Shown: positions 8,459 to 20,288 of the stretch, piece by piece
Numbering within the stretch: position 1 is the stretch's first letter
How the letters are laid out: each line of letters begins with the position of its first letter
Assembly (NCBI RefSeq): GCF_003334355.1
Contig: NZ_QOWP01000047.1
Reading direction: 5' to 3' (one strand)
Source: Escherichia coli
Lineage (GTDB): Bacteria; Pseudomonadota; Gammaproteobacteria; Enterobacterales; Enterobacteriaceae
Length of the DNA stretch: 21,171 bases
Notes under the pieces: generated by a model
What the model saw: only the letters and a program-made list of their open reading frames with translations
Database searches by the model: none
Told to the model about the DNA's origin: nothing
Made by a program: the position numbers and the translations under genes

Positions 8459-9505
8459 TTACACTCCGGATTCGCGAAAATGGATATCGCTGACTGCGCG
8501 CAAACGCTCTGCTGCCTGTTCTGCGGTCAGGTCTCGCTGGGTCTCTGCCAGCATTTCATAACCAACCATAAATTTACGTACGGTGGCGGAGCGCAGCAGA
8601 GGCGGATAAAAGTGCGCGTGCAGCTGCCAGTGTTGATTCTCTTCGCCATTAAATGGCGCGCCGTGCCAGCCCATAGAGTAGGGGAAGGAGCACTGGAAGA
8701 GGTTGTCATAACGACTGGTCAGCTTTTTCAACGCCAGCGCCAGATCGCTGCGCTGGGCGTCGGTCAAATCGGTGATCCGTAAAACGTGGGCTTTGGGCAG
8801 CAGTAGCGTTTCGAACGGCCAGGCAGCCCAGTAAGGCACGACGGCTAACCAGTGTTCGGTTTCGACAACGGTACGGCTACCGTCTGCCAGCTCGCGCTGA
8901 ACATAATCCACCAGCATTGGTGATTTCTGTTCGGCAAAATATTCTTTTTGCAGGCGGTCTTCGCGCTCAGCTTCGTTAGGCAGGAAGCTATTTGCCCAAA
9001 TCTGACCGTGCGGATGCGGGTTAGAGCAGCCCATCGCCGCGCCTTTGTTTTCAAAAACCTGCACCCATGGGTACGTTTTCCCCAGTTCTGCGGTTTGCTC
9101 CTGCCAGGTTTTGACGATTTCCGTCAATGCTGCAACGCTGAGCTCTGGCAGCGTTTTACTGTGATCCGGTGAAAAGCAGATCACCCGGCTGGTGCCGCGC
9201 GCGCTCTGGCAACGCATCAGCGGATCGTGACTTTCTGGCGCATCTGGCGTGTCAGACATCAAAGCCGCAAAGTCATTAGTGAAAACGTAAGTCCCGGTGT
9301 AATCGGGGTTTTTATCGCCTGTCACCCGCACATTACCTGCGCAGAGGAAGCAATCTGGATCGTGCGCAGGTAACACCTGTTTGGCTGGCGTTTCCTGCGC
9401 CCCCTGCCAGGGGCGCTTAGCGCGGTGCGGTGAAACCAGAATCCATTGCCCGGTGAGCGGGTTGTAGCGGCGATGTGGATGATCAACGGGATTAAATTGC
9501 GTCAT
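8459..9505 (-). CDS. galT: Galactose-1-phosphate uridylyltransferase
   Basis: 348 aa ORF recognised as GalT, including the HPH active-site motif ([11 protein letters not shown]); AAGGAA ribosome-binding site; 3 bp from galK. Confidence 0.96.
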
Positions 9506-10792: not shown

Positions 10793-12265
10793 TCAATATA
10801 TTTTTGTCAGCACATAGCGATAGAGTCCACCGTCCGGCACGAACTCAAGGCGATGGGTAATACAGGCAGGCGCATCTTCAGCGTGGTGCGAAACAAACAA
10901 CAATTGCGTTTCACCTTCGCTAATCAGCACATCAACAAAACGGCGGATAAGCTGGCGATTGAGCGGATCAAGCCCCTGTAGTGGTTCATCGAGAATAAGC
11001 AACGTCGGATGTTTCACCAGTGCGCGGACGATCAGCGCCAGACGCTGCTGTCCCCAGGAAAGACTATGGAACGGAGCGTCAGCCGTGCGTTTATCAATGC
11101 CGAGAATATCCAGCCACTGCTGCACCAGTTTTTGCTGGCGATCCGAAACGGCCTGATAAATGCCAATCGAATCAAAATAGCCAGAAAGAATCACATTACG
11201 CACGGTAGTGCTGACCCGGTAATCCAGATGCAAACTACTGCTGACGTAACCGATATGCTTTTTGATATCCCAGATGGTTTCGCCGCTGCCGCGACGTCGG
11301 CCGAAAAGCGTCAAATCGTTGCTGTAACCTTGCGGATGATCGCCAGTAATCAGGCTTAATAACGTCGATTTTCCCGCGCCATTTGGCCCGACAATTTGCC
11401 AGTGTTCGCCTGGATTCACCTGCCAGCTAAGGTTATTAAGAATGGGGCGATCATTATAAGAAACCACGCCATTGTTCAGCACAATGCGCGATTCGTTGGC
11501 GGGTAAGGCGTGACGTGCTGAAGGTTCATCCGGCTCCGGCAGTTGCACACCTTCAAGCTGTTCACTATGCGCAAGTTGCGCGACGAGTGCTTGCTGGAGC
11601 AGTTCCTCTTTAGCGCCAGTTTCCGCTAACGTACAATCCGCCAGCACGCCAGCAAACTGGACAAATTCCGGGATCTCATCGAAGCGATTGAGCACCAGTA
11701 CCAAAGTAATACCGGACTGATGTAACGAGGCGAGTCGCTCAGCCAGCTGCTGACGTGAGGCAACATCCAGGCCATCGAACGGCTCATCAAGAATCAACAA
11801 GTCAGGCTCCGACATCAGCGCCTGACACAGCAGGGTTTTTCGCGTCTCGCCAGTGGAAAGGTATTTAAAGCGTCGGTCGAGGAGGGCGGTAATACCGAAC
11901 TGCTGCGCCAGTTGCATGCAACGCGGTGCATCCTTTACTTCATCCTGAATAATCTCAGCCGTAGTGCGTCCGGTGTCATCTTCGCCAGGGCCGAGCATAT
12001 CGGTGTTATTCCGTTGCCATTCGTCGCTGACGAGCTTTTGCAATTGCTCGAAGGAGAGACGAGTGATGTGGGAAAACTGGCTTTGCCGTTCACCTTTCAA
12101 AAGCGGAAGTTCCCCCGCCAGCGCGCGGGCCAGCGCCGACTTTCCACTTCCATTCGAACCGACAAACGCCCAACTATCACCCGCGTTTAACGTTAGCTGA
12201 GGCAATTGCAGCGTTTTTGTGTCGCTAAGACGAAACGTGCCTTGCAAAATTTGCAACGATGACAT
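10793..12265 (-). CDS. modF: ABC-type ATPase ModF (two nucleotide-binding domains, molybdate-related)
   Basis: Two Walker A motifs (GSNGSGKS, GPNGAGKS) and two ABC signature/Walker B regions; recognised as ModF, 490 aa starting MSSLQ. The ORF track starts 4 codons earlier (12277); neither start has a strong ribosome-binding site, so the start is chosen by agreement with the known protein. Confidence 0.9.
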   Translation of the reverse strand: MSSLQILQGTFRLSDTKTLQLPQLTLNAGDSWAFVGSNGSGKSALARALAGELPLLKGERQSQFSHITRLSFEQLQKLVSDEWQRNNTDMLGPGEDDTGRTTAEIIQDEVKDAPRCMQLAQQFGITALLDRRFKYLSTGETRKTLLCQALMSEPDLLILDEPFDGLDVASRQQLAERLASLHQSGITLVLVLNRFDEIPEFVQFAGVLADCTLAETGAKEELLQQALVAQLAHSEQLEGVQLPEPDEPSARHALPANESRIVLNNGVVSYNDRPILNNLSWQVNPGEHWQIVGPNGAGKSTLLSLITGDHPQGYSNDLTLFGRRRGSGETIWDIKKHIGYVSSSLHLDYRVSTTVRNVILSGYFDSIGIYQAVSDRQQKLVQQWLDILGIDKRTADAPFHSLSWGQQRLALIVRALVKHPTLLILDEPLQGLDPLNRQLIRRFVDVLISEGETQLLFVSHHAEDAPACITHRLEFVPDGGLYRYVLTKIY

Positions 12266-12332: not shown

Positions 12333-13121
12333 TTAGCACAGCGTGGCGATAATCACGCTGTCGGCATTAAAGTAGGCCGTGACATTCTGCCCTTGCTGAA
12401 GAGAAGTCGCTTCATTTACCGGCACTGTGGCGCACAGTGTTTGCCCGTCGGGTAGCGCCATTAATACTTCGCACTGCTCTGCGCCGCGCTCAATATGACT
12501 AATAATACCCGGTAATTGGTTGTCGGCGTTTTGTGCGACCGCTTCGTCCTGAGTAATGCCTACCCACGGCGCTTTTAGCAATATCAACACTTCTTTGCCT
12601 TCATCCAGCCCCAGACGTGCGCCGCTTTGTGCGGTAATTGCGACTTTCAGGCGTGTTTTTCCGTCAGCCAGTAAGACATCAACATGCTGTTGAACGTCAT
12701 CATGATCGCGGGCGGTGATGGTACCGAACCACTGGTTACGGGCGCTGGTTTGCAGTGAAAAACGTGAGATCGCGGCCAGCAGGCTGTTCAGCGGCAGGGC
12801 GTCATCGTCACTTAACACATCAAAGGCTTTTTGCTGGATTTGCGCCAGTAAGTCATAGAGCTGAATCAGTCGCTGACCATAGCGGGTCAGTACTGCGCCT
12901 CCGCCACCTTTACCGCCTGTTGCGCGCTCAACCAGAATATGCTCGCTTAACTGATTCATCTCGTTAATGGCATCCCAGGCGCTTTTATAGCTGATACCGG
13001 CATCTTTCGCTCCCTGGCTAATGGAACCGGAAAGCGCAATGTGTTTTAGTAGCGAAATGCGGCGCGGGTCGGCGAATAATTTTTGTTGGAGCTTAAGGGT
13101 GAGAAGGATTTCGGCCTGCAT
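12333..13121 (-). CDS. modE: Molybdate-responsive transcriptional regulator ModE
   Basis: 262 aa ORF recognised as ModE (N-terminal HTH, C-terminal Mop domains); upstream of modF in the same orientation (modEF operon). Confidence 0.95.
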   Translation of the reverse strand: MQAEILLTLKLQQKLFADPRRISLLKHIALSGSISQGAKDAGISYKSAWDAINEMNQLSEHILVERATGGKGGGGAVLTRYGQRLIQLYDLLAQIQQKAFDVLSDDDALPLNSLLAAISRFSLQTSARNQWFGTITARDHDDVQQHVDVLLADGKTRLKVAITAQSGARLGLDEGKEVLILLKAPWVGITQDEAVAQNADNQLPGIISHIERGAEQCEVLMALPDGQTLCATVPVNEATSLQQGQNVTAYFNADSVIIATLC

Positions 13122-13231
13122 AACAATGTCCTGGCAAAAGTCTTATTGTGACGGAAAACGAACGCCACGCAAAGCTGACCGCACAAAAGGGGAGTGCTTT
13201 TCTGTGCTTAGCGGTTAGAATAGTCTCATGA

Positions 13232-13399
<168 letters not shown>

Positions 13400-13406
13400 T
13401 TCCCTG

Positions 13407-13437
13407 AATGCCCGCTTAGTCGGGCATTTTCTTTTTC
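13407..13437 (+). terminator. Intrinsic terminator of acrZ
   Basis: Stem AATGCCCG (13407-13414) / CGGGCATT (13421-13428), loop CTTAGT, followed by TTTTCTTTTT. Confidence 0.8.
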
Positions 13438-13521
13438 TCAACTTCCTGCTTTTCCTGCCGATATTTTTTCTTATCTACCTCACAAAGGTTAGCAATAACT
13501 GCTGGGAAAATTCCGAGTTAG

Positions 13522-13545
13522 TCGTTATATTGTCGCCTACATAAC
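13522..13545. promoter_or_regulatory. ModE operator at the modA promoter
   Basis: CGTTATATTGTCGCCTACATAACG has inverted-repeat arms CGTTAT / ATAACG about 20 bp upstream of the modA ATG; it matches the known ModE-molybdate binding site of modABC. Confidence 0.8.
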
Positions 13546-13565
13546 GTTACATTAAGGGGTTACCA

Positions 13566-14339
13566 ATGGCTCGTAAATGGTTGAACTTGTTTGCCGGGGC
13601 GGCACTCTCTTTCGCTGTTGCTGGCAATGCACTGGCAGATGAAGGGAAAATCACGGTGTTCGCCGCCGCATCACTGACTAACGCAATGCAGGACATTGCT
13701 ACGCAGTTTAAAAAAGAGAAAGGCGTGGATGTGGTTTCTTCTTTCGCTTCGTCATCTACTCTCGCCCGTCAGATTGAAGCGGGTGCGCCTGCGGATCTGT
13801 TTATTTCTGCCGATCAGAAATGGATGGATTATGCGGTTGATAAAAAAGCGATCGATACAGCTACGCGTCAGACACTGCTCGGCAATAGCCTGGTCGTTGT
13901 AGCACCGAAAGCCAGCGTGCAGAAAGATTTCACCATCGACAGCAAAACCAACTGGACTTCACTGCTGAATGGCGGTCGCCTGGCGGTTGGCGATCCGGAA
14001 CATGTTCCCGCTGGCATTTATGCAAAAGAAGCACTGCAAAAACTGGGCGCATGGGATACGCTCTCTCCGAAACTGGCCCCAGCGGAAGATGTTCGTGGGG
14101 CGCTGGCGCTGGTCGAACGTAACGAAGCGCCTCTGGGCATTGTCTACGGTTCTGACGCAGTTGCCAGCAAAGGGGTAAAAGTGGTTGCCACCTTCCCGGA
14201 AGATTCACATAAAAAAGTGGAATATCCGGTTGCTGTTGTGGAAGGGCATAACAATGCGACAGTGAAAGCATTTTATGATTATCTGAAGGGACCGCAGGCA
14301 GCGGAAATCTTTAAACGTTACGGATTTACAATCAAGTAA
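13566..14339 (+). CDS. modA: Molybdate ABC transporter periplasmic binding protein
   Basis: 257 aa ORF with signal peptide (MARKWLNLFAGAALSFAVAGNALA/DEG); recognised as ModA; AAGGGG ribosome-binding site. Confidence 0.96.
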   Translation: MARKWLNLFAGAALSFAVAGNALADEGKITVFAAASLTNAMQDIATQFKKEKGVDVVSSFASSSTLARQIEAGAPADLFISADQKWMDYAVDKKAIDTATRQTLLGNSLVVVAPKASVQKDFTIDSKTNWTSLLNGGRLAVGDPEHVPAGIYAKEALQKLGAWDTLSPKLAPAEDVRGALALVERNEAPLGIVYGSDAVASKGVKVVATFPEDSHKKVEYPVAVVEGHNNATVKAFYDYLKGPQAAEIFKRYGFTIK

Positions 14340-15028
14340 TGATACTGACCGATCCAGAATGGCAGGCAGTTTTATTAAGCCTGAAAGTTTCTTCCCTGGC
14401 TGTGCTGTTTAGCCTGCCGTTTGGGATCTTTTTTGCCTGGTTACTGGTGCGTTGCACGTTTCCGGGCAAAGCTCTGCTCGACAGCGTACTGCATCTACCG
14501 CTGGTGTTACCGCCCGTGGTCGTCGGTTACTTATTATTAGTTTCGATGGGACGGCGCGGATTTATCGGTGAACGTCTGTATGACTGGTTTGGTATTACCT
14601 TCGCCTTTAGCTGGCGCGGCGCGGTTCTCGCTGCCGCCGTCATGTCGTTTCCGCTGATGGTGCGGGCAATTCGTCTGGCGCTGGAAGGGGTTGATGTCAA
14701 ACTGGAACAGGCCGCAAGAACACTGGGGGCCGGGCGCTGGCGCGTTTTCTTTACTATCACGTTACCGCTGACCTTACCGGGAATTATTGTTGGTACGGTA
14801 CTGGCTTTTGCTCGTTCTCTCGGTGAGTTTGGTGCAACCATCACCTTTGTGTCGAACATTCCTGGTGAAACGCGAACCATTCCTTCTGCCATGTATACCC
14901 TGATCCAGACCCCCGGCGGGGAAAGTGGAGCGGCGAGACTGTGCATTATTTCTATTGCGCTGGCGATGATCTCCCTGTTGATTTCAGAATGGCTGGCCAG
15001 AATCAGCCGTGAACGGGCGGGGCGCTAA
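14339..15028 (+). CDS. modB: Molybdate ABC transporter permease
   Basis: 229 aa ORF; its ATG overlaps the modA stop (TAATG); recognised as ModB (ABC permease with EAA loop region). Confidence 0.96.
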
Positions 15029-15030
15029 TC

Positions 15031-16089
15031 ATGCTGGAACTGAATTTTTCCCAGACGTTGGGCAACCATTGCCTGACTATTAATGAAACGCTGCCCGCCA
15101 ATGGCATCACTGCTATCTTTGGCGTCTCCGGTGCCGGAAAAACTTCGCTGATTAACGCCATCAGTGGACTGACGCGCCCGCAAAAAGGGCGGATTGTCCT
15201 CAATGGGCGGGTACTAAATGATGCCGAAAAAGGTATCTGCCTGACGCCGGAAAAGCGTCGCGTTGGCTATGTTTTTCAGGATGCGCGGCTGTTCCCGCAT
15301 TACAAAGTGCGTGGCAATCTGCGCTACGGCATGTCGAAAAGTATGGTCGATCAGTTCGATAAGCTGGTGGCGCTTTTAGGCATTGAACCGTTGCTTGACC
15401 GTTTACCAGGCAGCCTGTCCGGAGGCGAAAAACAGCGCGTGGCGATTGGTCGGGCTTTGCTGACAGCACCGGAATTGCTGTTGCTGGATGAACCGCTGGC
15501 GTCACTGGATATTCCGCGTAAACGCGAACTGTTGCCTTATCTGCAACGGCTGACACGGGAAATCAACATTCCGATGTTGTATGTCAGCCATTCGCTGGAT
15601 GAGATCCTCCATCTGGCAGACAGAGTGATGGTACTGGAAAACGGTCAGGTGAAAGCCTTTGGCGCGCTGGAGGAAGTGTGGGGCAGTAGCGTGATGAATC
15701 CGTGGCTGCCGAAAGAGCAACAAAGTAGCATTCTGAAAGTGACGGTGCTTGAGCATCATCCGCATTACGCGATGACCGCGCTGGCGCTGGGCGATCAGCA
15801 TTTGTGGGTCAATAAGCTGGACGAACCGCTGCAAGCTGCGCTACGTATCCGCATTCAGGCTTCCGATGTTTCTCTGGTTTTACAACCGCCGCAGCAAACC
15901 AGCATTCGTAACGTATTGCGGGCAAAAGTTGTTAATAGTTATGACGACAACGGCCAGGTGGAAGTGGAACTGGAAGTCGGCGGTAAAACGCTGTGGGCGC
16001 GTATCAGCCCGTGGGCCAGGGATGAACTGGCGATCAAACCAGGCCTGTGGCTGTACGCGCAAATTAAAAGTGTGTCGATAACCGCCTGA
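15031..16089 (+). CDS. modC: Molybdate ABC transporter ATP-binding protein
   Basis: 352 aa ORF with Walker A (GVSGAGKTS), ABC signature (LSGGEKQRV), Walker B (LLLLDEP) and a C-terminal Mop/TOBE-type domain; recognised as ModC. Confidence 0.96.
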
Positions 16090-16908
16090 TTAAATCAGGT
16101 GGCTATAAATGAATTGGGCAATGCTGTCGGTGGTGTTATCACCAATCACAATGTTGGCGCGCGCTTTTACCGCGTCATCGGCGTTGCCCATCGCCACGCC
16201 TGTACCAGCGGCTTCCAGCATACTGATATCATTAAAGTTATCGCCGAATGCCACGACGTTTTCCATCGACCAACCTTGCGCCTCAACCCATTTCGTCAAA
16301 CGTTTACCTTTGCTGTTGCCGCCGCGTGCAATATCAACCTGATCGTGCCAGGACCATTCACACTCCAGTCCCAGTTCATGTTCGACATGCTTACCAAAAT
16401 GCTGCAATTGCGGCAGGTCATCGTGCGTCAGGGCGAACTTCCATACGGCGTTAACTTGTTGCGCCGTTTCAGCCAGAGAAGCGACTTGTGTGAAAGTCGG
16501 ACGCTGTTCCGGCGGCAGGGTTTGCGCCCAGTTAGATGTGCGAATGACATGCCCGGTCGGGTGCTCATAGACCATTGCATCATCGACATACATCAGACCG
16601 TGAATGTGGTGTTCATTCAGCATCTCAATGAGTTGCAGGGCTTTAATAACGGGCATTGGGTCCGCTTCCAGCACGGTTTTTGCATGATAATCATACAAAT
16701 AGGTGCCATTACAGCAAATAGCAGGTGTATCCAGCGCCAGCGCCTGATAAAAAGGATGAATAGCGACGTGATGGCGACCTGTGACGATGATTAATTGATA
16801 GCCTGCTTCGCGAGCGCGGGCCAGGGCTTCTATCGATGAAGGAAGCAGGGTCTTTTTCGGGGTCAATAAGGTGCCGTCTAAGTCGAGAGCAATCACGCGT
16901 GTGGTCAT
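16090..16908 (-). CDS. ybhA: HAD-superfamily (Cof-type) sugar-phosphate / pyridoxal-phosphate phosphatase
   Basis: 272 aa starting MTTRVIALDLDGTLL (HAD motif I DxDGT). The ORF track extends 34 codons upstream (17010); the trimmed start matches known YbhA. Confidence 0.92.
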   Translation of the reverse strand: MTTRVIALDLDGTLLTPKKTLLPSSIEALARAREAGYQLIIVTGRHHVAIHPFYQALALDTPAICCNGTYLYDYHAKTVLEADPMPVIKALQLIEMLNEHHIHGLMYVDDAMVYEHPTGHVIRTSNWAQTLPPEQRPTFTQVASLAETAQQVNAVWKFALTHDDLPQLQHFGKHVEHELGLECEWSWHDQVDIARGGNSKGKRLTKWVEAQGWSMENVVAFGDNFNDISMLEAAGTGVAMGNADDAVKARANIVIGDNTTDSIAQFIYSHLI

Positions 16909-17026
16909 GGCGTATTCCAGATTAAGGTTAAGAATTTTCGTCTGCGCGAATGGTACACCGATACCACTATCGGACAAAATTCTGCGTTTTAATTCAGCAT
17001 TCACCGCCAAAAGCGACTAATTTTAG

Positions 17027-18058
<1,032 letters not shown>

Positions 18059-18070
18059 CCGCTGATTTAC

Positions 18071-18094
18071 CCGGCGCAGTCTCTCCTGCGCCGG
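18071..18094. terminator. GC-rich stem-loop between convergent pgl and ybhD (possible shared terminator)
   Basis: CCGGCGCAG (18071-18079) / CTGCGCCGG (18086-18094) form a 9-bp stem with loop TCTCTC; no strong U-tract on either side, so it may be rho-dependent or only a stabilising hairpin. Confidence 0.4.
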
Positions 18095-18098
18095 TGTA

Positions 18099-19052
18099 TT
18101 AACCTATCTCCTGTAACGCGTGTCTCTGGCGTTCGACGATATTGGTCCACAAATTGTCTTTATCGTCAGTCCATAAATTAATCAGCAAGGCAAAAAAGCG
18201 TTCTGCTGCTGGAGAAAGTACGGCATCTTTACGGCGAATTATTCCCAATGTTCGACGTATAACGGGTTCCACCAATGGGATACCAATAATCGAAGAATAG
18301 GGCGCATGAGGCATTGCCAGGCCAGGAAGCGCCGAAATCCCCAGTCCCGCCTCCACCAGTCCTAATGACGTCGAAAGATGACGCACTTCGTAAAACCAGT
18401 CCAGCTTCCAGGGCTTGTCGGCCAGCTGTTGTTCTATCAACAGTCGGTTGCCGCTGGAGGAGCGTACGCCAATCATTTTGTAACCCACTAACTCCTGCCA
18501 TTCTACAAGCTGCTTTTTGGCCAATGGATGGTCACGCCGACAGGCCAGCACGAACGGCTCGTTGACCAGTGGGGTAAAATCAATGGATGAATTTGTGACG
18601 TTGTTCATGTTTATGCCAAAGTCTGATTCGTTACACAGCACCGATTCCATGCAATTATTCGTGCCTTGTTCCAGAATCCGCACTTTAATATTGGGATACA
18701 GCTCATTAAATTTACCGATTGCCAGCGGTAAAAAATAAAATACTGCGGTCGGAATACACGCTAACGTCACCATACCACGATGATAAGCATTCATATCACG
18801 AATATTAAAAAGCGTTTCATCGAATTTCTTTATTAATTCCCGCGCCTCCGGGAGCAACCTTTTTCCTGCTTTTGTTAACGTAACCTTGCGAGTTGTACGC
18901 TCAAATAGTTGAATATGTAAATCTTCCTCCATCTTTTTTATTCTTCGCGTTAATGCAGGTTGCGTAATATTGAGTAATTTAGCGGCATTGTTAAACGAAC
19001 TGGACTCTGCCAGTATGACAAATGCCTTCATACTTGATAATTCATGCTTCAT
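18099..19052 (-). CDS. ybhD: LysR-family transcriptional regulator (uncharacterised)
   Basis: 317 aa starting MKHELSSMKAFVILAESSSFNNAAKLLNITQPALTRRIKKME (LysR HTH); GGAG ribosome-binding site upstream of the ATG at 19052. The ORF track extends 21 codons further (19115) with no support. Confidence 0.9.
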   Translation of the reverse strand: MKHELSSMKAFVILAESSSFNNAAKLLNITQPALTRRIKKMEEDLHIQLFERTTRKVTLTKAGKRLLPEARELIKKFDETLFNIRDMNAYHRGMVTLACIPTAVFYFLPLAIGKFNELYPNIKVRILEQGTNNCMESVLCNESDFGINMNNVTNSSIDFTPLVNEPFVLACRRDHPLAKKQLVEWQELVGYKMIGVRSSSGNRLLIEQQLADKPWKLDWFYEVRHLSTSLGLVEAGLGISALPGLAMPHAPYSSIIGIPLVEPVIRRTLGIIRRKDAVLSPAAERFFALLINLWTDDKDNLWTNIVERQRHALQEIG

Positions 19053-19235
19053 TATTACTCCGGAAAATGGAAGCGACGATTTTGGGTGGCTGGCCGTTAA
19101 AAATTTTAACTGCATTTAGCCAACTTAAATTAATGAAAAAATGTTATTAATCGTTGAGCTAAAGTCATTAGAGATGCTTTGCCCTTAATGTAACCATATC
19201 GCAATAAGTTATGTTTTTAAATTGAGGGCATTATT

Positions 19236-20288
19236 ATGAAAAAAATACCCTGCGTGATGATGCGAGGTGGAACCTCGAGGGGCGCGTTCCTGTTAGCGGA
19301 ACATTTACCCGAAGATCAAACGCAGCGCGATAAAATATTGATGGCAATTATGGGTTCCGGTAACGATCTGGAAATTGACGGTATTGGCGGCGGTAATCCA
19401 CTGACCAGTAAAGTCGCCATTATTAGCCGTTCCAGCGATCCGCGTGCTGATGTCGATTATCTGTTTGCGCAGGTAATCGTTCATGAGCAACGTGTCGATA
19501 CCACGCCTAACTGCGGCAATATGCTGTCTGGTGTTGGGGCATTCGCCATTGAAAATGGTTTGATTGCAGCGACTTCGCCAGTTACTCGCGTACGTATCCG
19601 CAACGTCAATACGGGTACGTTCATCGAAGCTGATGTGCAAACGCCAAATGGTGTTGTCGAGTACGAGGGTAGCGCCAGAATTGACGGCGTACCGGGTACT
19701 GCCGCACCGGTTGCGCTCACTTTCCTGAATGCCGCTGGAACCAAAACCGGAAAAGTTTTCCCGACTGATAATCAGATTGATTATTTTGACGATGTCCCGG
19801 TGACCTGTATCGATATGGCGATGCCAGTCGTCATTATTCCGGCTGAATATCTGGGAAAAACAGGTTATGAATTACCGGCGGAACTGGATGCCGACAAAGC
19901 ATTATTAGCCCGCATTGAATCTATCCGTCTACAAGCGGGTAAAGCAATGGGCTTAGGTGATGTCAGTAATATGGTTATCCCTAAACCTGTGCTTATTTCT
20001 CCAGCGCAGAAAGGCGGGGCAATTAATGTGCGTTATTTTATGCCGCATTCTTGCCATCGCGCGCTGGCGATAACCGGTGCTATTGCTATTTCCAGTAGTT
20101 GTGCATTGGAAGGCACCGTCACCCGACAAATCGTCCTTTCTGTAGGATACGGCAATATCAATATTGAACACCCCAGTGGTGCGCTCGACGTTCATTTAAG
20201 TAATGAAGGTCAGGATGCCACGACGTTACGCGCATCTGTTATTCGGACGACCAGAAAAATATTTTCCGGTGAAGTTTATCTTCCCTGA
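19236..20288 (+). CDS. ybhH: PrpF / methylaconitate-isomerase-like putative isomerase (diaminopimelate-epimerase fold)
   Basis: 350 aa ORF; GAGGG ribosome-binding site; contains a TPNCGNM motif reminiscent of the catalytic Cys region of the PrpF/DapF-like fold; recognised as E. coli YbhH. Confidence 0.9.
   Translation: MKKIPCVMMRGGTSRGAFLLAEHLPEDQTQRDKILMAIMGSGNDLEIDGIGGGNPLTSKVAIISRSSDPRADVDYLFAQVIVHEQRVDTTPNCGNMLSGVGAFAIENGLIAATSPVTRVRIRNVNTGTFIEADVQTPNGVVEYEGSARIDGVPGTAAPVALTFLNAAGTKTGKVFPTDNQIDYFDDVPVTCIDMAMPVVIIPAEYLGKTGYELPAELDADKALLARIESIRLQAGKAMGLGDVSNMVIPKPVLISPAQKGGAINVRYFMPHSCHRALAITGAIAISSSCALEGTVTRQIVLSVGYGNINIEHPSGALDVHLSNEGQDATTLRASVIRTTRKIFSGEVYLP

Follow-up and report, generated by a model that had tools for sequence, protein, structure and literature searches.

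The window analyzed here, a stretch of 21,171 nucleotides of Escherichia coli DNA, corresponds to the modABC-ybhA-pgl region of this species. The gene names modC and ybhA are those of the RefSeq annotation beneath the match of a 1-kb stretch around the site under study, and this stretch has a match in 5392 of 5426 complete E. coli genomes. The two genes are convergent, and 0 bases separate the TGA of modC (16087-89, plus strand) from the TAA of ybhA (16092-16090, minus strand). A previous sequence-only reading had drawn attention to a perfect palindrome that contains both of these abutting stops, and in this its description is exact, as judged by the sequence and the ORF coordinates. The 15-mer CCTGATTAAATCAGG occupies 16085-16099 (in the context aaccgCCTGATTAAATCAGGtgg), with arms CCTGATT and AATCAGG and a center at A16092. 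The features of the locus are as follows, in coordinates of the window.

15031 to 16089, plus strand: modC, molybdate ABC transporter ATPase of 352 aa, ending KSVSITA* (from the ORF and the annotation)
15989 to 16089, minus strand: 3'UTR of ybhA, 101 nt, antisense to the last 33 codons of modC and its stop (from TRS, PMC10687069)
16078 to 16106, either strand: extended imperfect inverted repeat or hairpin, ATAACCGCCTGAT-TAA-ATCAGGTGGCTAT (from RNA folding)
16085 to 16099, either strand: perfect 15-bp palindrome, CCTGATT-A-AATCAGG, containing both stop codons (read from the sequence)
16090 to 16908, minus strand: ybhA, Cof-type HAD phosphatase of 272 aa, ending FIYSHLI* (from the ORF and the annotation)
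16090 to 16858, plus strand: RNA antisense to ybhA, with its 3' end at 16858 (from Term-seq, PMC7815308)

Both arms of the palindrome are therefore coding, and the proteins differ in what they ask of them. The Pfam domain TOBE spans residues 290-351 of the 352 residues of ModC, so that the C-terminus of modC is constrained by the protein, and Hydrolase_3 spans residues 6-267 of the 272 residues of YbhA, with the YSHLI tail outside the domain. From these domain limits, the residues encoded by the modC arm are needed for the structure of the protein, and those of the ybhA arm form a short conserved tail.

Anatomy and rarity of the hairpin

Taken alone, the perfect 15-mer is statistically unremarkable in this window, where 14 perfect palindromes were counted at an arm length of 7 bp or more and a spacer of 0-3, compared with 5.3 +/- 2.1 in mononucleotide shuffles; 6 of them have a 1-nt spacer, compared with 1.1 expected from the shuffles. 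As RNA, the 15-mer folds into 6 bp with a 3-nt loop (-5.1 kcal/mol), a 1-nt loop being unable to form. The true element is longer and was missed by the sequence-only reading. It is a 29-nt imperfect dyad, ATAACCGCCTGATTAAATCAGGTGGCTAT, at 16078-16106, whose folded hairpin has a free energy of -14.1 kcal/mol on the plus strand and -14.3 kcal/mol on the minus strand (z -5.6 and -5.2, respectively, relative to shuffles). The plus-strand RNA forms 12 pairs, 9 of them contiguous, with one G.U pair and one 1x1 internal mismatch, and the minus-strand RNA also forms 12 pairs, of which 6 are contiguous. Read on the plus strand, the final codons of modC, ATA ACC GCC, together with its TGA make up the 5' arm, and the final codons of ybhA, TAT AGC CAC CTG ATT, supply the 3' arm as their reverse complement. 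The stop of ybhA, on its own strand, falls in the loop and the first base of the 3' arm. Stalling of ribosomes at the shared hairpin, which had been suggested earlier, seems unlikely given this arrangement, since a ribosome that terminates at a stop codon in the 5' arm or the loop would already have melted the stem.

When a 36-nt fold was slid along the 21-kb window, the hairpin ranked about 23rd among the distinct two-strand hairpins and within the top 0.9% of positions. Some 22 distinct sites in the window are equal or better, and several of these are obvious terminators. Terminator hairpins elsewhere in the window reach -20 to -25 kcal/mol, and the modC/ybhA stem is much weaker. Its center lies 2-3 nt from the junction, a coincidence with a chance of about 3% per site. 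A GC-rich stem-loop, as expected of an intrinsic terminator, is present on both strands (-14 kcal/mol); the two other marks of that class, a U-tract and 3' ends at the stem, are absent. The sequence that follows the stem is AAAUGAAUUGGG on the plus strand and CGACACACUUUU on the minus strand, and neither contains a U-tract. A scan of positions 13000-19500 for consensus promoters and terminators placed no site at the junction, and an Rfam scan of 15000-17300 on both strands gave no match at E <= 1.

The dyad symmetry, along with the fact that perfect palindromes are commoner in the window than in shuffles, could also be read as the mark of an element acting at the level of DNA, either a binding site for a dimeric protein or a cruciform. 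We consider this extremely improbable, as the perfect dyad is confined to Escherichia and is located where two genes end, remote from any promoter, and the scan found no promoter-like site nearby. Arms of 7 bp are too short for extrusion of a stable cruciform. An operator of the FNR or CRP kind was rejected on the basis of its half-site spacing, TGAT-N3-ATCA, which departs from the usual patterns of FNR and CRP.

Conservation of the junction and of the stem

The comparative analysis used one YbhA scan of species-representative genomes, which yielded 80 loci from Enterobacteriaceae, all of at least 75% identity; the listing of homologous proteins was likewise confined to relatives of at least 75% identity. 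A zero-base junction was found at 77 of the 79 loci with both genes present, in about 24 genus-level groups. One of the two exceptions is Kosakonia pseudosacchari, with a highly structured insertion of 108 nt at the junction, and the other is a metagenome-assembled genome in which the spacer is 1 nt long and 2 kb are duplicated or inserted. At one further locus modC is internally deleted and the junction is kept. The abutment of modC and ybhA is apparently as old as the core Enterobacteriaceae. The zero-base spacing probably persists mainly through mutational inertia, because both C-termini are conserved and one phosphodiester bond alone would tolerate an insertion without damage to an ORF.

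The palindrome has fared differently from the gene arrangement. The perfect 15-mer is confined to Escherichia, in which it is unchanged in the window and 6 other loci. It is absent from the other genera because YbhA ends there in LL* and not in LI*, and the junction in those genera reads TTACAGCAGG (in the wider context CCGCCTGA and TTACAGCAGGTGG). A Leu-to-Ile change in Escherichia would have tightened the loop and given rise to the perfect 15-mer. What the other genera have is a shorter stem, CCGCCTG/CAGGTGG, of 7 bp with a 7-nt loop, whose wobble positions have partly drifted. The sequence-only reading had staked its case in part on conservation of the palindrome wherever the gene arrangement is conserved, and this has turned out half against it, in that the perfect palindrome is not conserved outside Escherichia despite the kept arrangement. 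In many genera the stem is broken, for example by the His codon CAT, with dG values between -3 and -7; in Klebsiella it is extended, to -17 to -26 kcal/mol, through changes of amino acids in both of its sides.

Over 74 distinct sequences, the structure of E. coli is paired in 78.6% of cells, compared with 27-49% in slid controls. Covariation gave no convincing compensatory signal, with both-sided changes in 2 of 12 pairs and most of the variation one-sided or pair-breaking. At the level of codons, modC uses GCC for its final Ala in 58 of 60 sequences, and of 24 conserved Ala columns this one varies least. The TGA of modC is kept in 73 of 77 sequences, and the paired Leu codon of ybhA is CTG in 72 of 77. 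Two further positions are ordinary relative to background columns, namely the His wobble position that closes a central G-C pair (CAC in 46, CAT in 16) and the Thr codon, which is ACC in 57 of 71.

The main question then is how much of this structure goes beyond what the two proteins and the codon usage dictate. The last 5 codons of modC and the last 7 of ybhA were recoded synonymously according to each locus's own codon usage and refolded. The E. coli fold is more stable than 99-100% of its synonymous recodings. Across 78 sequences the median p was 0.048 for the plus strand and 0.20 for the minus strand, and 21 of 24 genus-level groups were more stable than their own null median. The control consisted of 26 internal coding windows on both strands (52 in all), for which the mean z was -0.27, with sd 0.40 and a minimum of -1.22. 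The mean z of the junction was -1.70 (plus) and -1.14 (minus) when the stops were randomized and -1.34 and -1.04 when they were fixed, values at the edge of the control range; leaving Escherichia aside, it was -1.17 and -0.84. The excess structure is real but modest, clear in Escherichia (p ~0.01) and at the edge of the controls across the family, and the evidence for selection on the structure of the stem is weak to moderate.

Within E. coli, 5205 genomes carry the 31-mer 16077-16107 without any change, compared with 5388 that match a 61-mer around the junction. A change that extends the stem, C16103T (YbhA S269N), occurs in 17 E. coli genomes, and no E. coli genome was found with G16102A. 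The sampled variants outside the stem are synonymous or flanking. Stem variants in E. coli are too sparse for a population test. A REP or other dispersed palindromic repeat was considered and rejected, since the 31-mer has a median of 1 place per genome and a maximum of 2 in 5207 genomes. Read-through of the modC UGA into an in-frame antisense ORF of 231 aa (16099-16794) was also considered and rejected, as the frame is not conserved and the next stop follows after a median of 63 codons over 77 loci.

Transcript ends around the junction

Published maps of 3' ends in MG1655, whose coordinates equal those of the window plus 781523, bear directly on the function of the stem. The TRS study (Nat Commun 2023, PMC10687069; Supp Data 2-4) places the primary 3' terminus of ybhA at MG1655 797512/797513 on the minus strand. 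This corresponds to window position 15989/90, which is 101 nt inside modC and 89 nt beyond the hairpin, and the published flanking sequence agrees with that of the window. Three tables of that study carry this terminus, a re-analysis of earlier datasets, the authors' own comparison of RNAtag-seq and Term-seq, and an analysis of 3'UTR and CDS expression. The ratio of 3'UTR to CDS coverage of ybhA was about 5, similar to those of acrZ, galM, and pgl (PMC10687069), which argues that most ybhA transcripts pass the hairpin.

On the plus strand, Term-seq (eLife 2021, PMC7815308, Supp file 1) reports one nearby 3' end, at 798381, classed as 'antisense ybhA'. This is position 16858 of the window, which lies 769 nt downstream of the modC stop and about 750 nt downstream of the stem, and it is preceded by a weak hairpin (z ~0) and U5. 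The RNA that ends here is either read-through from modABC or an internal antisense transcript. The tables of this study list neither a 3' end nor a Rho termination region at 7974xx-7979xx, and in the Term-seq and TRS tables together no 3' end lies at the hairpin on either strand (7975xx-7977xx). These methods do detect hairpin-associated ends in this neighborhood, since the 3' ends of acrZ, aroG, and pgl sit right after their own hairpins in the same published tables. The maps were made in molybdate-replete media, in which modABC is repressed, and a plus-strand end at the hairpin could be missed under such conditions. Minor 3' ends or pauses at the hairpin may be compatible with the published maps. 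The supplements of SMRT-Cappable-seq contain no mention of modA, modC, or ybhA, and the literature on the old modABCD/modD annotation gave no usable result.

The bidirectional intrinsic terminator after pgl (18064-18099) is, like the modC/ybhA stem, a GC-containing stem-loop at a convergent junction. Its free energy is -21 to -23 kcal/mol and the pgl transcript ends right there, whereas the modC/ybhA hairpin has -14 kcal/mol, no U-tract, and no mapped end.

With respect to the sequence-only reading, its deduction that each transcript must enter the coding region of the other gene is borne out by the intergenic distance of 0 bp, by the ybhA 3' end inside modC, and by the listing of the pair as an excludon (see below). 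Its proposal that the shared hairpin stalls RNA polymerase finds no support, as there is neither a 3' end nor a Rho region at the hairpin and no U-tract follows it, and the same holds for protection of 3' ends, given that the Term-seq and TRS tables show none at the stem. It had also named the outcome that would speak against it, transcripts ending far beyond the palindrome with no 3'-end enrichment there. This outcome is what the minus strand shows; the evidence for the plus strand is weaker, modABC being repressed in the media used.

The stem could in principle serve as a barrier to 3'-to-5' exonucleases or be a structure related to RNase III. It is a -14 kcal/mol stem located directly 3' of each coding sequence on that gene's own strand, and overlapping transcripts would provide a duplex substrate for RNase III. 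However, trimmed mRNAs would then end just past the stops, and there is no enrichment of 3' ends at the stem in Term-seq or TRS. The stem is also much weaker than the terminators of the window (-20 to -25 kcal/mol) and its conservation is partial, and we regard such a role as very unlikely.

Excludons, collision-type terminators, and a compacted gene boundary

The pair modC-ybhA is among the 165 convergent excludons of MG1655 identified by ExcludonFinder (NAR 2025, PMC12288877, Table 1), and 50% or more of 58 RNA-seq sets show it (PMC12288877). As in other convergent excludons, convergent genes have overlapping transcripts, for which the 101-nt ybhA 3'UTR inside modC is independent support. 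It differs from them in its spacing of 0 nt, compared with a mean of 95 nt for the excludons of E. coli (PMC12288877). With a spacing of 0 nt the overlap of modC and ybhA is unavoidable and need not be regulatory. We therefore class the locus with the convergent excludons and regard its hairpin as a coding-embedded element of putative function; the overlap of the transcripts is already catalogued, and the biology is ordinary.

In mechanism, the hairpin comes nearest to the collision-type bidirectional terminators (Ju, Li and Liu 2019; Wang et al. 2023), of which the one at ynaJ-uspE is an example. Those elements are described there as intergenic, with uniform 3' ends at the element, and the model requires a Rho-independent hairpin, not of the intrinsic kind, at a convergent boundary. 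The modC/ybhA stem is such a two-strand hairpin, non-intrinsic and without evidence of Rho, placed exactly at the boundary of the two genes. Its stability is above the synonymous null in most genera, and some of its synonymous sites are unusually fixed. It could thus be a coding-embedded terminator of this type, which would pause polymerase arriving from either side, localize head-on and trailing collisions, and limit read-through. We consider this unlikely. Unlike the elements described in those accounts, the stem lies within both ORFs, and the mapped ends lie 89 nt (minus) and about 750 nt (plus) beyond it. The majority of ybhA transcripts run past the stem, the published tables give no 3' end at the hairpin for either strand, and the uniform 3' ends that define the class were not seen at modC/ybhA in maps made with modABC repressed. 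Moreover, the stem is broken in many genera (His CAT; dG -3 to -7), and translating ribosomes occupy the 5' arm as far as the stop codon.

A related proposal is that the final codons and stops alone constitute a conserved pause and collision element, which would place head-on polymerase encounters at the boundary of zero intergenic length when modABC is induced. This appears quite unlikely to us. Were it true, molybdate uptake and the expression of a PLP phosphatase would be insulated or coupled across Enterobacteriaceae, and a terminator-like function would be writable into the coding sequence of both strands simultaneously. More generally, a functional hairpin would mean that 29 nt can accommodate two ORFs along with a bidirectional transcription-boundary element, and this would bear on the insulation of very compact convergent gene pairs.

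The reading that we favor, and hold to be fairly probable, is that the junction is the compacted boundary of two conserved convergent genes and not a shared terminator, with the hairpin mostly a by-product. The stops touch, and the codons for the conserved C-termini (ModC SITA* and YbhA Y-x-H-L-L/I*) would happen to be partly complementary, so that a modest hairpin (about -14 kcal/mol in E. coli) is encoded by both strands. RNA polymerase would pass this hairpin from either side. The ybhA mRNA ends about 100 nt within modC, and plus-strand RNA extends about 770 nt into ybhA. The hairpin would result mostly from protein constraint and preferred codons (GCC, ACC, CAC, and CTG), and selection on RNA structure would be at most weak, and strongest in Escherichia. 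The two genes may then be viewed as a convergent unit of overlapping transcripts, and their expression could be coupled through transcriptional interference or through pairing of the antisense RNAs.

For the stem as a terminator or as a stabilizer of RNA there is no evidence. As the evidence stands, modC/ybhA is a tidy case of a known rule, by which the lack of intergenic space leads to overlapping antisense 3' regions. In practical terms, transcripts of the modC/ybhA region actually end within the opposite genes, the Enterobacteriaceae have had the zero-base junction since ancient times, and synonymous edits near either stop touch the 3'UTR of the opposite gene.

Published 3' ends on either side of the junction

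Two published 3' ends flank the abutting stop codons of modC and ybhA. The primary 3' terminus of ybhA was mapped to MG1655 797512/3 on the minus strand, window 15989-15990 (PMC10687069), and falls within modC codons, the sequence being ...GCGCCCACAGCG/UUUUACC (the slash marks the end). Structure ahead of this terminus is weak, and the end may arise either from termination or from processing.

On the plus strand, Term-seq placed a 3' end at MG1655 798381, window 16858, antisense to ybhA (PMC7815308). It lies 50 nt inside the ybhA 5' end, downstream of a weak hairpin followed by UCUUUUU, and it implies a plus-strand RNA that spans nearly all of ybhA. Either the mod promoter or an internal antisense promoter may give rise to this RNA.

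The strongest two-strand hairpin of the window serves as a contrast to the modC/ybhA hairpin:

18064-18099, both strands: hairpin between pgl and its convergent neighbour downstream, -21.3 / -22.8 kcal/mol

The published 3' end of pgl, at 799622-4 (window 18099-18101), coincides with this hairpin (PMC10687069), which is a textbook bidirectional terminator.

The junction in related genomes

Among the Enterobacteriaceae loci of our species-representative genome scan, the following stood out:

L067:3320-3427, Kosakonia pseudosacchari: 108-nt insert precisely between the two stop codons
L033:3317-5396, MAG UBA3516: two copies of the junction, one on each side of an insert of about 2 kb
L080:3280-3500, Pseudescherichia vulneris: junction kept with zero gap

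The Kosakonia insert is bounded by inverted CGGCGG/CCGCCG repeats and contains a GC hairpin; when roughly 30 nt of flanking coding sequence are included at either end, the folding energy is about -67 kcal/mol. It resembles a small REP- or MITE-like insertion, and its presence shows that the modC/ybhA junction can be opened. The UBA3516 insert carries two minus-strand ORFs of 119 aa and 183 aa, and both copies of its junction have a 1-nt spacer, TGA-A-TCA; either a faulty assembly or a genuine insertion could explain this arrangement. At the P. vulneris locus tblastn for modC gave no match, which suggests an internal deletion in this gene; the final modC codons nevertheless directly adjoin the ybhA stop.

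At four Klebsiella loci (L065, L070, L072 and L075), ModC ends in ..SIAA and YbhA in ..R(H/Q)LL. Extra G-C pairs result from the replacements T>A and S/T>R, and the plus-strand stems reach -15.6 to -26.4 kcal/mol. The hairpin thus seems to have been lengthened by amino-acid changes on both sides, but the event is confined to a single clade.

Antisense frame, alleles and palindromes in the window

An open frame lies behind modC:

16099-16794, plus strand: 231-aa ORF with a GTG start, antisense to ybhA and in the modC frame

Only UGA and three codons separate it from modC. It is ruled out as a conserved gene, since the frame past the modC stop stays open for 234 codons here, whereas the median across 77 related loci is 63. 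A 'modD' ORF downstream of modC may have been called in early annotation.

Position 16114 of the window carries a minority synonymous T (Gln CAA), versus CAG in the other aligned E. coli and Escherichia sequences, and of 5388 E. coli genomes just 143 contain the exact 61-mer 16062-16122. Short perfect palindromes number 14 over the whole window versus 5.3 expected, an excess of about 2.6-fold, and include:

8644-8658: perfect palindrome CGCCATTAAATGGCG
12242-12256: perfect palindrome TTGCAAAATTTGCAA
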